From NCBI RefSeq assembly GCF_003018255.1, contig NZ_CP027440.1: 64,000 nt of DNA, one strand, 5' to 3'. Below the pieces are notes generated by a model. It saw only the letters and a program-made list of their open reading frames with translations, had not been told where the DNA came from and ran no database searches. Within the stretch, counting starts at the first letter, position 1. Each line of letters begins with the position of its first letter. A program made the position numbers and the translations under genes. Of the stretch, positions 4,534-32,469 are shown in pieces. The stretch comes from Escherichia coli (GTDB taxonomy: Bacteria; Pseudomonadota; Gammaproteobacteria; Enterobacterales; Enterobacteriaceae).

Positions 4534-5979
4534 ATGCTCGTGGCCCAACACACCGTTTATTTCCCGGACGCCTTTCTGACACAAATGCGCGAAGCGATGC
4601 CTTCGACGCTCTCTTTTGATGATTTTCTTGCCGCCTGTCAGCGCCCGTTGCGCCGCAGCATTCGCGTTAATACGCTGAAAACCTCCGTTGCTGATTTCCT
4701 GCAATTAACTGCTCCTTATGGCTGGACGCTTACGCCAATTCCGTGGTGTGAAGAAGGTTTCTGGATTGAACGCGACAGTGAAGATGCATTGCCGTTGGGT
4801 AGTACCGCCGAGCATTTAAGCGGCCTGTTTTATATTCAGGAAGCCAGTTCAATGTTGCCTGTTGCCGCCTTGTTTGCTGACGGTAATGCACCACAGCGGG
4901 TGATGGATGTCGCTGCCGCGCCCGGCTCCAAAACGACGCAAATTGCCGCGCGGATGAATAACGAAGGGGCAATCCTTGCCAATGAGTTTTCCGCCAGTCG
5001 GGTAAAAGTGTTACATGCCAATATCAGCCGCTGTGGCATCAGTAATGTTGCGCTCACGCATTTTGATGGCCGCGTATTTGGTGCGGCAGTGCCAGAAATG
5101 TTCGATGCCATTTTGCTGGACGCTCCCTGCTCCGGCGAAGGCGTGGTGCGTAAAGATCCCGATGCGCTAAAAAACTGGTCACCAGAAAGCAATCAGGAAA
5201 TCGCAGCGACCCAACGGGAACTGATCGACAGCGCCTTTCATGCATTACGTCCTGGCGGTACGCTGGTTTACTCGACCTGTACCTTAAACCGGGAAGAAAA
5301 CGAAGCCGTTTGCCTGTGGCTGAAAGAGACTTATCCCGACGCAGTAGAGTTTTTACCGCTTGGCGATCTCTTCCCTGGTGCAAACAAGGCGCTGACCGAG
5401 GAAGGCTTTTTGCATGTTTTCCCACAAATTTACGACTGCGAAGGCTTCTTCGTTGCTCGTCTGCGTAAAACTCAGGCGATTCCCGCCTTACCCACCCCAA
5501 AATACAAAGTGGGCAATTTCCCGTTCAGCCCGGTGAAAGATCGCGAAGCCGGACAAATTCGTCAGGCGGCTGCAAGTGTTGGCTTAAACTGGGATGAAAA
5601 CCTGCGACTCTGGCAGCGTGACAAAGAACTGTGGTTGTTCCCGGTGGGCATTGAAGCCCTGATCGGTAAAGTCCGATTTTCTCGCTTGGGGATTAAACTT
5701 GCCGAAACGCACAACAAAGGTTATCGCTGGCAGCATGAAGCCGTTATTGCCCTTGCCTCCCCCGACAATGTGAACGCTTTTGAACTGACACCGCAGGAAG
5801 CGGAAGAGTGGTATCGCGGGCGCGATGTTTACCCGCAAGCCGCGCCAGTAGCGGATGATGTATTGGTTACTTTCCAGCATCAGCCGATTGGTTTAGCCAA
5901 ACGGATTGGTTCGCGACTGAAAAACAGCTACCCGCGTGAACTGGTGCGCGATGGGAAACTTTTTACCGGTAACGCCTGA
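4534..5979 (+). CDS. rsmF: 16S rRNA m5C1407 methyltransferase
   Basis: 481 aa ORF with SAM-binding motif ([11 protein letters not shown]) and Sun/NOL1-type catalytic region (DAPCSGEG). Matches RsmF/YebU. Confidence 0.9.
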
Positions 5980-28535: not shown

Positions 28536-29677
<1,142 letters not shown>

Positions 29678-29682
29678 TTACC

Positions 29683-30294
29683 TCATAACGCGGCGCGTAG
29701 GGCTTCGCGAATTAATGTTTCACTGCTGGCGTCAGGGCGAGCGATTTTGCTCACCATACGGCTTGCTTCTTGTGGTTTATAGCCCAGCGCCACCAGCGCA
29801 GCAACCGCTTCCTGTTCAGCATCGTCGGTCGCCGGGCTGGCAGGTGACGTGAGTACCAGGTCGGCGGCTGGCGTAAAGAGATCGCCATGCAAACCTTTAA
29901 ATCGGTCTTTCATTTCGACAATCAAGCGTTCGGCGGTTTTTTTGCCAATACCCGGCAGTTTCACCAGTGCCCCCACTTCTTCACGCTCAACGGCATTAAC
30001 GAACTGCTGCGCTGACATTCCGGAGAGGATCGCCAGCGCCAACTTCGGGCCGACGCCGTTGGTTTTGATCAACTCTTTGAACAACGTGCGCTCTTGTTTA
30101 TTGTTAAAACCGTACAGCAGTTGCGCGTCTTCACGCACCACAAAGTGGGTGAAAACGATCGCTTCCTGACCCGCTTCAGGGAGTTCATAAAAACAGGTCA
30201 TCGGCATATGCACTTCATAGCCTACGCCGCCCACTTCAATTAACACCAGCGGGGGTTGTTTTTCAATGATGATGCCTCTGAGTCTGCCTATCAC
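29683..30294 (-). CDS. ruvA: Holliday junction DNA-binding protein RuvA
   Basis: 203 aa [28 protein letters not shown]... Confidence 0.95.
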
Positions 30295-30346
30295 ATGACG
30301 CTCCTGCGTAATGAATCAAAGATAATGCTGTATGATAAAAAAATGC

Positions 30347-30362
30347 TGGATAGATATCCAGC
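30347..30362. promoter_or_regulatory. LexA (SOS) box of the ruvAB promoter
   Basis: CTGGATAGATATCCAG, a CTG-N10-CAG perfect palindrome about 55 bp upstream of ruvA; the 20-mer context CGCTGGATATCTATCCAGCA matches the ruvAB SOS box as I recall it. Confidence 0.75.
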
Positions 30363-30568
30363 GAAGGATGAAGAAAACTTGCGAGGTGTCCCGATGATCT
30401 GAAAAATGGCGCAGTATAATTTATTCTACAGATTATATTGGAAGCAAATATTTAAATATTACATATTCAGCGAAGAAATGTGTAATAAAAATACACATCG
30501 CGACCCCTGAAAAAATAAATTTTTTATGCTATTACGTATATTCATATCTATTTCAATGGAATGACAAC

Positions 30569-31171
30569 GTGAATATTAATTATCCTGCTGAATATGAAAT
30601 TGGTGATATCGTCTTTACATGTATAGGTGCTACCTTATTTGGTCAAATATCAGCTGCATCAAATTGCTGGAGTAATCACGTCGGGATCATTATCGGTCAT
30701 AACGGTGAAGACTTCCTGGTTGCAGAAAGCCGGGTTCCCCTTTCAACCATCACCACGCTATCTCGTTTTATTAAACGTTCGTCTAATCAACGCTATGCTA
30801 TAAAGCGATTAGACGCTGGGCTGACAGAACAACAAAAACAACGAATTGTTGAACAGGTTCCCTCCCGGCTACGCAAACTTTACCACACCGGTTTTAAATA
30901 CGAATCTTCGCGCCAGTTCTGTTCAAAATTTGTTTTTGATATTTATAAAGAAGCGCTATGTATTCCGGTGGGTGAAATAGAGACGTTTGGAGAATTGTTA
31001 AATAGCAATCCGAATGCAAAACTCACTTTCTGGAAATTCTGGTTCTTAGGTTCTATTCCGTGGGAGCGTAAAACCGTCACGCCAGCCAGTTTGTGGCATC
31101 ATCCGGGTTTGGTGTTGATTCATGCGGAGGGAGTGGAAACGCCTCAGCCGGAACTGACCGAGGCGGTATAA
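30569..31171 (+). CDS. yebB: Uncharacterised YebB; probable permuted papain-fold (DUF830, YiiX/YaeF-like) hydrolase
   Basis: 200 aa from a GTG start; His motif ([11 protein letters not shown]) precedes the Cys motif ([10 protein letters not shown]), the permuted order typical of the family. The gene is markedly AT-rich compared with the flanking ruv genes. Confidence 0.7.
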
Positions 31172-31172
31172 C

Positions 31173-31694
31173 TTAACGCAGTCGCCCTCTCGCCAGGTTC
31201 AGCCGCGATTCGCTCATCTGCATCGCATTCTGACTGACGTGACAATGGGTAATCGCGATAGCTAATGCATCGGCAGCATCCGCCTGTGGATTAGCGGGCA
31301 GTTTCAGCAAGGTGCGGACCATATGCTGCACCTGGCTTTTTTCGGCACTACCAATACCTACCACCGTTTGCTTTACCTGACGTGCCGCATATTCAAATAC
31401 CGGCAATTCCTGATTCACCGCTGCCACAATCGCCACGCCGCGCGCCTGACCCAGTTTCAGGGCTGAGTCAGCGTTCTTCGCCATAAAGACTTGTTCAATG
31501 GCGAAATAATCAGGCTGGAACTGGGTGATGATTTCCGTCACGCCCGCATAGATGAGCTTCAGACGAGACGGTAAATCATCCACTTTGGTGCGTATGCATC
31601 CGCTACCCAGGTAGGACAGTTGCCTGCCTACCTGGCGGATGACGCCATAGCCGGTCACGCGCGAACCCGGGTCAATGCCGAGAATAATAGCCAT
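31173..31694 (-). CDS. ruvC: Holliday junction resolvase RuvC
   Basis: 173 aa from [18 protein letters not shown] (RNase H-fold resolvase). Confidence 0.9.
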
Positions 31695-31728
31695 CACGCG
31701 TCTCCGTTTTGCTGTTTAGCAGGCCTCA

Positions 31729-32469
31729 TCAGAGAGTCGCTGCAACCTCATCAGAGATTTCACCGTTATGGTAAACTTCCTGCACGTCGTCGCAATCTTC
31801 CAGCATATCGATCAGACGCATCAGTTTCGGTGCGGTTTCTGCATCCATATCAGCTTTGGTGGACGGGATCATGGAAACTTCCGCGCTGTCTGCTTTCAGA
31901 CCTGCCGCTTCCAGAGCGTCGCGTACTTTGCCCATTTCTTCCCATGCAGTGTAGACATCAATCGCGCCGTCATCATAGGTCACAACGTCTTCAGCACCGG
32001 CTTCCAGGGCTGCTTCCATGATGGTGTCTTCATCGCCTTTCTCGAAGGAGATCACGCCTTTTTTGCTGAACAGATAAGCTACGGAACCATCAGTACCGAG
32101 GTTACCGCCACATTTACTGAATGCATGGCGCACTTCAGCAACGGTACGGTTGCGGTTGTCAGACAGACATTCAATCATGATTGCCGTGCCGCCAGGACCG
32201 TAACCTTCGTAGATGATGGTTTCCATGTTTGCATCATCATCACCGCCCACACCTCGTGCAATTGCGCGGTTCAGAGTGTCACGGGTCATGTTGTTAGACA
32301 GTGCTTTATCAATTGCTGCACGCAGACGCGGGTTAGCGTCCGGATCACCACCGCCCAGCTTAGCCGCGGTTACCAGCTCACGAATGATTTTAGTGAAGAT
32401 TTTACCGCGCTTAGCATCCTGCGCAGCTTTACGATGTCTGGTGTTGGCCCATTTACTATGACCTGCCAT
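31729..32469 (-). CDS. yebC: YebC/PmpR-family transcriptional regulator
   Basis: 246 aa [27 protein letters not shown]..., the family signature. Confidence 0.9.

Follow-up and report, generated by a model that had tools for sequence, protein, structure and literature searches.

yebB of Escherichia coli encodes a permuted papain-like enzyme within a putative old insertion between ruvC and the LexA operator of ruvAB

The window analyzed here comprises 64,000 nucleotides of one strand of Escherichia coli contig NZ_CP027440.1 (RefSeq assembly GCF_003018255.1). Within it, the genes ruvA (29683..30294) and ruvC (31173..31694), both identified by open reading frame and annotation and both located on the minus strand, are separated by yebB, a plus-strand coding sequence (30569..31171) that begins with GTG, ends with TAA, and encodes 200 amino acids. 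The GTG is the first possible start after an in-frame stop at 30515, and RefSeq annotates yebB at identical coordinates, so that the reading frame and the public record agree on the GTG start given in the initial annotation. The yebB orthologues of other genera carry an ATG at the aligned start position, and no strong Shine-Dalgarno match is present at the E. coli gene. With a GC content of 43.3% (z = -3.3) and a GC3 of 38.8% (z = -2.9), yebB is the minimum for both measures among the 57 long ORFs of the 64-kb window, compared to 53.4% GC for ruvA and 54.7% for ruvC, which bears out its earlier description as AT-rich relative to these two neighbors. Copies from Salmonella, Citrobacter, and Kluyvera have 48-50% GC versus 43% in Escherichia; the persistence of this low value in Escherichia is a point against the overall explanation that we favor below and is left unaccounted for.

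yebB and ruvC are convergent, and their stop codons lie 1 nt apart. A 10-bp hairpin on the ruvC-sense, i.e., minus, strand (31140..31165; MFE -22.1 kcal/mol, z = -3.2) starts 8 nt after the ruvC stop codon and is situated inside the last yebB codons. Its helix is kept in eight yebB-bearing genomes, whereby two pairs are changed on both sides, and it possibly constitutes a ruvC 3'-end or terminator structure.

On the other side of yebB, the spacer toward ruvA (30295-30568) is 274 bp long and has 32% GC, a value that two short intergenic regions of 51 and 101 bp match or undercut. The initial annotation had described an AT-rich spacer of about 270 bp containing the ruvAB LexA box, which was accurate in these respects but overlooked the annotated small protein gene yobI (30433..30498, minus strand, 21 amino acids; NCBIfam NF038179, 61 bits). 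yobI is divergent from yebB, and its detection was limited to the two E. coli records and to a divergent genome labeled as E. coli, where its form is diverged. A candidate sigma-70 promoter of yebB occupies 30507..30535 on the plus strand (CTGAAA, 17-nt spacer, TATTAC); its hexamers are those of a study in which RNA polymerase holoenzyme bound the yobI/yebB spacer in vitro, and the promoter was predicted from a genomic SELEX peak rather than placed by mapping of a transcription start (PMC3946193).

The LexA (SOS) box of ruvAB was located by its palindrome at 30345..30362, where it reads GCTGGATATCTATCCAGC on the minus strand, with the LexA-type palindrome CTGGATAGATATCCAG at 30346-30361. It has the form CTG-N10-CAG with an AT-rich center and is placed at a promoter, overlapping the -35-like hexamer of a ruvA-directed promoter-like site. 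Together with the T-run that follows, the box is also scored as a hairpin resembling a terminator for transcription from ruvC toward ruvA. Binding of LexA at the ruvAB operator is well established. The same box was found upstream of ruvA in nearly all of the related species read, in a few of them with one or two base changes, and an intact box is missing in one species. The ruvA-proximal 70 bp (30295..30364, minus strand) are the only part of the spacer that is common to other genera (78-90% DNA identity), and this cross-genus identity, together with a by-eye alignment with empty sites, marks them as the ancestral ruvA leader and promoter segment. The alignment places the LexA box in this ancestral leader and not in the inserted DNA.

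The adjoining region up to ruvC (30365..31172), delimited by means of empty sites and gap sizes, is an AT-rich islet of about 0.8 kb that carries yebB and yobI together with the region upstream of yebB. Among 80 species of Enterobacteriaceae and Erwiniaceae, the site is empty in about 60, where a gap of about 84 bp separates the adjacent genes ruvC and ruvA, and all insertions larger than about 250 bp in this gap are situated between the LexA palindrome and the stop codon of ruvC. yebB is patchily distributed within the Enterobacteriaceae, and even sister taxa of yebB carriers differ in the presence of the islet. The signs of horizontal acquisition are thus the deviating GC content (z = -3.3) and an empty site in relatives, sister taxa included. 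In Proteus, Providencia, and Budvicia, yebB is found at three unrelated loci, where its GC content is close to that of the surroundings. These comparisons support the view that the yebB islet is an old insertion between the ruvC stop codon and the LexA operator of ruvAB, and they sustain the suggestion of an old horizontal insertion splitting ruvAB from ruvC that had been made from composition and placement. The Enterobacteriaceae YebB sequences form one clade, and the synonymous divergence of yebB is similar to or somewhat above that of the flanks, with saturation in more distant pairs. Most likely, the islet would have entered an ancestor of the Escherichia-Salmonella-Citrobacter-Klebsiella group and would afterward have undergone loss or erosion on many occasions. 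If the insertion was a single ancient event, a clean 84-bp junction must have been restored by many later losses, and homologous recombination through the conserved ruvC and ruvA flanks, be it by spreading or by removing the islet, would give an identical pattern.

Neither direct or inverted repeats nor a second copy of the LexA palindrome were found at the islet boundaries, no integrase or transposase ORF occurs in any islet version examined, and an Rfam scan of 29600-31800 gave no real family match, hence no tRNA detectable with the Rfam models. Searches for yebB copies yielded no matches on phages and none on true plasmids, whereby the "plasmid" matches turned out to be mislabeled chromosomes, chromids, very large non-mobilizable records, or distant YiiX-type genes. 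A classification as a mobile genomic island was rejected on these grounds, with no mobility genes, boundary repeats, or tRNA detected. In its atypical GC content, patchy presence, and alternative cargo the islet resembles small non-mobile islets at conserved junctions. The only named organisms among the nearest relatives outside the Enterobacterales are Burkholderia and Cupriavidus (43-44% identity); the cluster look-ups otherwise gave metagenome proteins only, and no donor taxon can be named.

Within E. coli, 5425 of 5426 complete genomes carry the islet, 5390 of them with at least 80% coverage, and the dN/dS of yebB amounts to 0.03-0.15 in Escherichia, Salmonella, and Providencia. yebB belongs to the core genome of E. 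coli and evolves under purifying selection. These values bear on the idea that yebB might be left over from foreign DNA, decaying, silenced, and without present function, to which its AT-richness, GTG start, lack of a strong Shine-Dalgarno match, and patchy distribution would fit, as would a yebB pseudogene in Klebsiella spallanzanii. We regard such decay as highly improbable, since the dN/dS is low and all four catalytic residues (see below) are kept, the gene is full-length and intact in the orthologues examined and occurs in more than 99% of E. coli genomes, and the in vitro binding of the holoenzyme to the yobI/yebB spacer speaks against silencing.

The neighborhood of ruvA could also suggest a functional link of yebB with the SOS response or with recombination by RuvABC, and co-regulation by the LexA box. 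The ruvA-yebB intergenic region with this box is common to both genes, yebB was predicted to be a LexA target in a network reconstruction from expression data (PMC2689187), and a long lag phase was reported for a single yebB::Tn isolate (PMC5996734). Against this, the LexA box and the ruvA leader are older than the insertion and are found beside ruvA in genomes without yebB, and yobI and a distance of about 145 bp separate the box from the downstream candidate promoter of yebB (-35 at 30507), with the yebB start codon about 205 bp away from the box. Moreover, unrelated genes are carried at the same junction in Kosakonia, Phytobacter, and Intestinirhabdus, in Morganellaceae and Budvicia yebB is not in the vicinity of ruv, and the YebB fold has no known link to nucleic acids. 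We therefore consider a functional tie to SOS or recombination very unlikely; the position of yebB beside ruv would most likely be an accident of the landing place and not the sign of a role in recombination.

The encoded protein matches the YebB equivalog model NCBIfam NF008547 with 405 bits (E = 5e-122; cut-off 227) over residues 1-199 of 200, and Pfam PF05708 (Peptidase_C92, formerly DUF830) with E = 1.4e-45 over model positions 3-165 of 166. YebB is a stand-alone 200-amino-acid member of the YaeF/YiiX clade of circularly permuted NlpC/P60 papain-like enzymes. Alignment to YiiX (PDB 2IF6), with residue roles as described in PMC3142127, identifies His37 (codon 30677..30679, plus strand as for all four codons; YiiX His49) as the catalytic histidine, Glu53 (30725..30727; YiiX Glu64) as the third triad residue that orients the histidine, Tyr105 (30881..30883; YiiX Tyr115) as the NlpC/P60 signature tyrosine, which in these enzymes holds the P1 carbonyl (PMC3142127), and Cys118 (30920..30922; YiiX Cys128) as the catalytic nucleophile. 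His37 lies within the motif NHVGIIIGH, and Cys118 within CSKFVFDIY at the start of helix 118-130, so that His37 and Glu53 precede Cys118 in the same permuted order as in YiiX. Among 56 homologues, His37, Tyr105, and Cys118 are each conserved in 55 and Glu53 in 54; one deviant homologue has lost three of the four residues (His, Tyr, and Cys). G12 and D13 of the GD motif of the family are invariant among the YebB homologues. The fold of YebB is the papain-like alpha+beta fold known from solved members of the family, and the predicted model of YebB superposes on YiiX over 178 residues, at 1.6 A; the geometry of the catalytic triad and a hydrophobic S1 pocket are only implied by this superposition. 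The HMM matches and the YiiX alignment uphold the initial annotation in its reading of a His motif followed by a Cys motif in a permuted papain fold (DUF830, YiiX/YaeF-like). They also agree with the permuted papain-like family to which its "hydrolase" was assigned, but the label itself is not settled because the characterized relatives with known activity are mostly acyl-transferases or phospholipases. yebB, its family, and its fold are already part of the public annotation.

The likeness to YiiX has its limits. YiiX of E. coli (PDB 2IF6, NCBIfam NF007458) is only 26-28% identical to YebB, and since YebB reaches 79 bits on the YiiX model, below the cut-off of 216, it represents an equivalog separate from YiiX. 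On the YiiX profile, YebB begins only after about 15 residues, and it lacks an N-terminal leader; a Trp/Phe-rich motif at the C-terminus, FWxxWFLGxIPWxRxTVTPxS (residues 154-174), is common to the relatives of YebB but missing in YiiX, and YiiX itself has no assigned reaction. BcPPNE from Bacillus cereus (BCE_A0238, PDB 3KW0), with 16-18% identity to YebB, was crystallized with lysine in a closed state and, like YiiX, has no assigned substrate. The PLAAT/HRASLS and LRAT acyl-transferases and phospholipases A1/2 belong to another, LRAT-like and mostly eukaryotic family; only 92 residues of PLAAT4 (PDB 7ZOT) align with YebB at 16% identity, and YebB is not to be filed there. Tox-Act1 and TseH are secreted type VI effectors that come with immunity genes and secretion systems, whereas YebB has no such context or domains. 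LnsA from Staphylococcus aureus is a YiiX-like permuted enzyme of about 190 amino acids that is implicated in the transfer of fatty-acyl groups and is required for lipoprotein N-acylation (PMC7387801), but it differs by its own signal peptide and its need for LnsB, and its 18% identity refers to YiiX and not to YebB.

No signal peptide, lipobox, or transmembrane segment was recognized in YebB by simple measures; the Kyte-Doolittle mean over 19 residues peaks at 1.44, and the N-terminus is acidic. YebB is probably cytoplasmic, judging from these sequence features. Several homologues with 40-50% identity carry lipoprotein or signal-type N-termini. The features matter for the proposal that YebB is a peptidoglycan endopeptidase or amidase like MepS/Spr, LytE, and CwlO, which are canonical NlpC/P60 enzymes. 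Because YebB has neither a signal peptide nor a lipobox, it would not reach the cell wall; in addition, the solved members of the permuted clade have a hydrophobic instead of a hydrophilic S1 pocket and bind fatty acid (PMC3142127), and only about 55 YebB residues superpose on canonical NlpC/P60 compared to the 178 on YiiX. A peptidoglycan-cleaving role has next to no likelihood in our judgment. An assignment as a canonical NlpC/P60 hydrolase (P60-like, AcmB/LytN-like), in which Cys comes before His and the protein is exported, was discarded, as the order in YebB is permuted.

By analogy to YiiX, LnsA, and Tox-Act1, we infer as the best reading that YebB would be a thiol acyl-hydrolase or acyl-transferase whose substrate is lipid-like. 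In the YiiX crystal, a fatty acid lies beside the catalytic Cys128 in a hydrophobic S1 pocket (PMC3142127), and Tox-Act1 cleaves phosphatidylglycerol and phosphatidylethanolamine, an activity for which its His and Cys are needed (PMC12994826). In the proposed reaction, His37 and Glu53 would activate Cys118, which would attack a fatty-acyl amide or ester at its carbonyl, with the substrate held against Tyr105. An acyl-thioester intermediate would then form on Cys118 and would be resolved by water if YebB is a hydrolase, or by an acceptor if it is an acyl-transferase. As substrate, a lipid-like molecule at the cytoplasmic face of the membrane is envisaged, with N-acyl amino acids or peptides, lysophospholipids, phospholipids, and acylated proteins as candidates. 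The gene of one 44%-identical homologue is located directly downstream of a PlsC-type acyltransferase/AMP-binding fusion and near an LpxK-domain gene, a lipid-metabolism neighborhood that is a single case and suggestive only. No conserved pathway partner was found in the neighborhoods of the YebB orthologues and of three distant homologues. A literature search retrieved no paper that establishes the function of YebB and no biochemical or genetic test, in agreement with the earlier remark that the gene has no established function. Taking the enzyme identity, the acyl chemistry, the old insertion of the islet, and the chance position beside ruv as one explanation, we consider it likely to be correct.

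What else accompanies yebB at the junction leads to two further readings. In E. albertii, Salmonella enterica, and Citrobacter amalonaticus, yebB adjoins a divergently transcribed gene for an orphan membrane protein of 224-231 amino acids with hydrophobic N-terminal segments and a Cys-rich C-terminal part (40-60% identity among the three). The Salmonella gene might be STM1896, a locus tag for which papers mention motility and macrophage phenotypes and which was not used as evidence. yebB could therefore be half of a toxin/immunity or enzyme/membrane-partner pair whose divergent membrane-protein partner was lost from E. coli. Such a partner-like membrane protein is found next to yebB in three genera, the AT-rich and patchily distributed islet can be counted in favor of a two-gene pair, and there is precedent in Tox-Act1, a permuted NlpC/P60 toxin with a membrane-associated immunity protein (PMC12994826), and in LnsA, which needs the membrane protein LnsB (PMC7387801). 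The pairing is not kept, however: E. coli, Pseudocitrobacter, and a Klebsiella species have yebB without a partner, a different, unrelated second gene takes this place in Superficieibacter and Kluyvera georgiana, and the orthologues of Proteus, Providencia, and Budvicia have no such membrane-protein neighbor. YebB has no secretion or trafficking domain, and the PADLOC defense-system models gave no match for YebB and only noise for the E. albertii partner, just as none of the four cargo proteins tested fell into an NCBIfam family and the Salmonella partner, the only one compared with Pfam, had no match there. A permissive tblastn search for partner-gene remnants in the E. coli spacer yielded nothing above noise, so that the idea of yobI as a relic of the Salmonella/E. 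albertii membrane-protein gene is unsupported as well. We judge a lost two-gene pair unlikely. A similarly small chance is given to the wider reading that the ruvC-ruvA junction would be a recurrent landing site for small cargo, bounded by the LexA-operator/terminator-like hairpin, that the islet would be what erosion has left of a larger module of yebB, the orphan multi-pass membrane protein with its Cys-rich domain, and a DUF4034-like protein, and that YebB and the membrane protein would form an LnsA/LnsB-like pair for lipid acyl transfer or removal, of which E. coli keeps the enzyme only.

The explanation that we favor, a cytoplasmic acyl enzyme whose gene landed beside ruv by chance, leaves the initial observation on yebB correct yet ordinary, and none of these results changes the current understanding. 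The islet is a tidy example of how the conserved operon ruvC-ruvA-ruvB became split in E. coli, in which ruvC is not under SOS control because the LexA operator stayed with ruvA. yebB itself is among the core genes of E. coli that are still annotated without a function. The characterized permuted NlpC/P60 members act on membrane lipids, which they remodel or destroy, or attach acyl groups to lipoproteins or host proteins, and a cytoplasmic, housekeeping-like member could reveal an unrecognized step in lipid or lipopeptide turnover.

The region shares 100% identity with the chromosome of Escherichia coli strain 104 and 97.6% with that of K-12 MG1655. The RefSeq gene order along the window is ruvB, ruvA, yobI, yebB, ruvC, yebC, nudB, and the feature under study is the already named gene yebB. 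It occupies an ORF at 30569–31171 (plus strand, 200 aa) between ruvA and ruvC, whereby the stop codons of yebB and ruvC are separated by 1 nt. The GTG start proposed in the initial annotation was confirmed, as no earlier start codon follows the in-frame TAA at 30515; at the aligned position, ATG is used by orthologues of other genera and GTG by the Escherichia copies. The gene had also been described as AT-rich compared with its neighbors, which the analysis of GC content and codon positions bore out: with 43.3% GC (ruvA, 53.4%; ruvC, 54.7%) and 38.8% GC3, yebB has the lowest value of both among the 57 non-overlapping long ORFs of the window (mean GC 51.4%, sd 2.5), corresponding to z-scores of -3.3 and -2.9, respectively. 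The ruvA–yebB interval, described as an AT-rich spacer holding the ruvAB LexA box, is indeed 274 bp long with 32% GC and contains the box at 30346–30361, but it also holds the annotated gene yobI, which had been overlooked. yobI (30433–30498, minus strand, 21 codons) is divergent from yebB, is annotated as "stress response small protein", and matches NCBIfam NF038179 with 61 bits. Strain 104 and K-12 differ in 3 of the 21 residues of its product, which is present in a diverged form in L004, a divergent genome labeled as E. coli; beyond the E. coli records and L004, yobI was not detected in the other fetched loci. Thus, yobI looks like a young gene that has arisen on inserted DNA.

In order to place yebB in its genomic context, RuvC was used as an anchor in 80 species from the GTDB genome set, and YebC, RuvC, YebB, RuvA, and RuvB were located in each of them. 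In about 60 of the 80 species ruvC and ruvA are adjacent, with a gap of 72–128 bp (84 bp as the typical value). Among them are Salmonella enterica subsp. arizonae, Enterobacter, Klebsiella michiganensis, Raoultella, Buttiauxella, Cedecea, Erwinia, and Mixta, as well as most Citrobacter. yebB lies at the junction in Escherichia, Pseudocitrobacter, one Klebsiella species, Kluyvera georgiana, Superficieibacter, S. enterica subsp. enterica, and one Citrobacter amalonaticus strain. In Klebsiella spallanzanii yebB is a pseudogene (866–1469 of locus L034) with a broken alignment and only an 80-aa C-terminal ORF remaining; it is intact in a related Klebsiella species. Homology of the E. coli interval to the ancestral ruvA leader is limited to 30295–30364, and the segment from about 30365 to 31172 is extra. 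This empty site in most species and the patchy carriers support the earlier suggestion of an old horizontal insertion.

At the empty sites, a few nucleotides (up to about 12) separate the ruvC stop codon from GGCTGGATATCTATCCAGCC, behind which come a T-run, the -10 region, and ruvA. The LexA palindrome immediately behind ruvC is terminator-like as well as operator-like (e.g., 5535–5560 of the islet-free locus L005), and this single element may combine the roles of ruvC terminator and ruvAB operator. In E. coli the palindrome CTGGATAGATATCCAG (30346–30361) overlaps the -35-like hexamer of a promoter-like site pointing to ruvA, and the LexA box of ruvAB (30345–30372, minus strand) forms a perfect hairpin followed by a T-run. 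The LexA operator is part of the ancestral ruvA leader, which is a modest addition by this analysis. ruvC of E. coli is known not to be SOS-regulated. The LexA box would control ruvAB but not ruvC in this species because the old insertion separated ruvC from the operator. A 16-nt direct repeat with 88% identity (30351–30366, TAGATATCCAGCGAAG; 30460–30475, TACATATTCAGCGAAG) connects a site within yobI with the right half of the LexA box plus adjoining sequence and could be chance or a vestige of local duplication. Between the LexA box and yobI, the pattern CTG-N10-CAG is matched once more at 30399–30414 (CTGAAAAATGGCGCAG). The window contains 28 such matches versus 13.5 expected from shuffles, an excess that is probably due to CTG and CAG being common codons, and this match is likely to be chance.

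A 10-bp hairpin in ruvC sense (31140–31165, minus strand) starts 8 nt past the ruvC stop codon within the last yebB codons (MFE -22.1 kcal/mol, z = -3.2) and is followed by UUUC. Its helix is kept in eight yebB-bearing genomes, with two pairs altered on both sides, and the yebB codons beneath it encode a tail predicted with low confidence (residues 191–200, mean pLDDT 70). This hairpin may act as ruvC terminator in place of the ancestral palindrome. While the yebB gene, its family, its fold, and a family-specific annotation model were all already known, the exact islet boundaries, the conserved hairpin inside the yebB tail, the recognition of yobI, and the evidence for a variable ruvC–ruvA junction with alternative cargo are modest additions by this analysis.

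Extra DNA exceeding about 250 bp is always located on the ruvC side of the palindrome, after the ruvC stop codon, and neither palindrome duplication nor boundary repeats were found at these loci; two shorter expansions of about 205–215 bp (L024, L067) are located between the palindrome region and ruvA instead. In a neighbor-joining tree of the concatenated flanking proteins, the carriers fall mostly into the Escherichia–Salmonella–Citrobacter–Kluyvera–Pseudocitrobacter group and one into the Klebsiella clade, whereby sister taxa differ in yebB presence (the two S. enterica subspecies, the two C. amalonaticus genomes, and the two species each of Kluyvera and Klebsiella). YebB of the Enterobacteriaceae forms one clade apart from Proteus, Providencia, and Budvicia, where yebB resides at three unrelated loci with a GC content close to that of the surroundings (36% vs. 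35%, 38% vs. 39%, and 49% vs. 52%, respectively). Compared with its flanks, yebB shows a similar or somewhat higher synonymous divergence relative to E. coli (pS vs. E. albertii 0.49, flanks 0.29–0.44; vs. Salmonella 0.70, which is saturated, flanks 0.49–0.64). No yebB copies were found on phages or genuine plasmids. Most simply, these data are read as a single old insertion in an ancestor of this Enterobacteriaceae group followed by repeated loss and erosion; the same pattern would result if yebB had been gained or lost by homologous recombination via the ruvC and ruvA flanks, which are highly conserved. At this same site, GC3 of yebB is 37–40% in Escherichia and Pseudocitrobacter versus 50–58% in Salmonella, Citrobacter, Kluyvera, and Superficieibacter.

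The junction also holds other genes. Kosakonia and Phytobacter carry a divergent pair (about 5523–7445 in L018, L031, L039, L049, L051, L052, and L056) of a putative regulator gene (272–277 aa, judged by eye to be MmyB-like) and a putative short-chain-dehydrogenase-like gene (289–293 aa), of which L053 retains a deleted remnant. Intestinirhabdus has a DUF4034-like gene (L045, 5523–7064). The ruvC–ruvA junction behaves as a small variable hotspot with alternative cargo and without mobility genes. In E. albertii, S. enterica, and C. amalonaticus, yebB adjoins an orphan membrane protein gene (L003, 6438–7124; L083, 4100–4774; L087, 4105–4800), whose 224–231-aa product is hydrophobic in its N-terminal half, rich in Cys in its C-terminal part, and 40–60% identical between genera; C. 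amalonaticus has a DUF4034-like gene in addition. The Salmonella gene might correspond to the locus tag STM1896, for which motility and macrophage phenotypes have been reported. NCBIfam assigned no family to four cargo or neighbor proteins (including the E. albertii and Salmonella partners), Pfam none to the Salmonella partner, and PADLOC gave no match for two partners (including the E. albertii copy). That YebB and its neighbor form a toxin–immunity pair or a two-component system is unlikely, since several lineages retain yebB alone and others have a different gene beside it: Superficieibacter and K. georgiana carry an unrelated orphan (228 and 155 aa, 30% mutual identity; L035, 1619–2305; L040, 6719–7186), and therefore the second islet gene is not constant.

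dN/dS of yebB is 0.03–0.11 versus E. albertii, Salmonella, Pseudocitrobacter, Kluyvera, and Providencia and 0.15 within E. coli, and all but one of the 5426 complete E. coli genomes carry the inserted segment (5425, of which 5390 with at least 80% coverage). These selection and conservation data make it highly improbable that yebB is a dead remnant; it is a maintained gene. Binding of sigma-70 and sigma-S holoenzymes to the yobI/yebB spacer in genomic SELEX (PMC3946193, PMC5493296) fits an expressed yebB. A tie to SOS or recombination appears very unlikely, even though yebB was predicted to be a LexA target by a network study based on expression data (PMC2689187) and a single yebB transposon isolate showed a long lag phase (PMC5996734): the LexA operator is older than the insertion, about 145 bp of DNA including yobI separate it from the candidate yebB promoter downstream, and in other families yebB is located elsewhere.

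With regard to the protein, a His motif followed by a Cys motif had been taken to indicate a permuted papain-fold (DUF830) enzyme, and HMM searches agree with this. YebB scores 405 bits with NCBIfam NF008547 ("YebB family permuted papain-like enzyme", cut-off 227) and matches Pfam Peptidase_C92 (PF05708, formerly DUF830) end to end (1.4e-45), whereas it remains below the cut-offs of the YiiX (79 bits) and YaeF (11 bits) NCBIfam models. YiiX (2IF6) is the sole solved relative found by sequence (8.5e-18). A search of 1.84 billion representative proteins yielded 672 matches at E ≤ 1e-3, the source of the relatives (27–47% identity) that were aligned with YebB orthologues (56 sequences). The AlphaFold2 model predicted from this alignment (pLDDT 95.4, pTM 0.90) retrieved 2IF6 (E 1.8e-17, TM 0.82–0.90) and 3KW0 in Foldseek. 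The catalytic residues His49, Glu64, Tyr115, and Cys128 of YiiX (Xu et al., 2011, PMC3142127) align by HMMER to His37, Glu53, Tyr105, and Cys118 of YebB, in the anticipated His-before-Cys order, and the two motifs pointed out initially are therefore the correct ones. Each of these positions is conserved in 54–55 of the 56 homologues, and G12-D13, the GD motif, is invariant throughout. The only deviant sequence, P0260 (27% identical, alignment A1), has Gln, Asn, and Gly in place of the catalytic His, Tyr, and Cys, which suggests a putative pseudo-enzyme branch within the family. A Trp/Phe-rich motif at residues 154–174 is conserved across YebB relatives but missing in YiiX; speculatively, it might touch the membrane or the substrate. 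The N-terminus of YebB lacks a positively charged N-region and starts about 15 residues into the YiiX profile, and the peak 19-residue Kyte–Doolittle mean (1.44) falls within the folded core. Among the 40–50% relatives, several have lipoprotein or signal-type N-termini and others do not. From these sequence features we infer that YebB is probably cytoplasmic. A role as cell-wall hydrolase is extremely improbable, given the missing export signal, the placement of YebB in the permuted clade, and its poor overlap with canonical enzymes.

As anticipated by the initial annotation, no experiment on YebB was found in the literature searched, and our proposal for its function derives from the chemistry of its relatives. 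The YiiX crystal contains a bound fatty acid in a hydrophobic tunnel beside Cys128, with its head group hydrogen-bonded to Tyr115, and the authors proposed an amidase acting on a lipid–amino-acid linkage (PMC3142127). Lipoprotein N-acylation in S. aureus requires the YiiX-like LnsA (PMC7387801), the toxicity of the phospholipase Tox-Act1 depends on its His and Cys, and the LRAT/PLAAT enzymes comprise acyl-transferases and phospholipases that form a thioester (PMC12994826). By analogy, Cys118, activated by His37 and Glu53, would form an acyl-thioester from a fatty-acyl amide or ester positioned by Tyr105, which would be resolved by water or an acceptor at the cytoplasmic side of the membrane. 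In locus L092 (1507–6772), a 44% YebB homologue without signal peptide is encoded directly downstream of a 768-aa PlsC-type acyltransferase/AMP-binding fusion of Aas-like architecture, and an LpxK-domain gene follows two genes later, about 1.4 kb farther downstream. This lipid-metabolism neighborhood was seen once and supports a lipid-directed role as a single anecdote.
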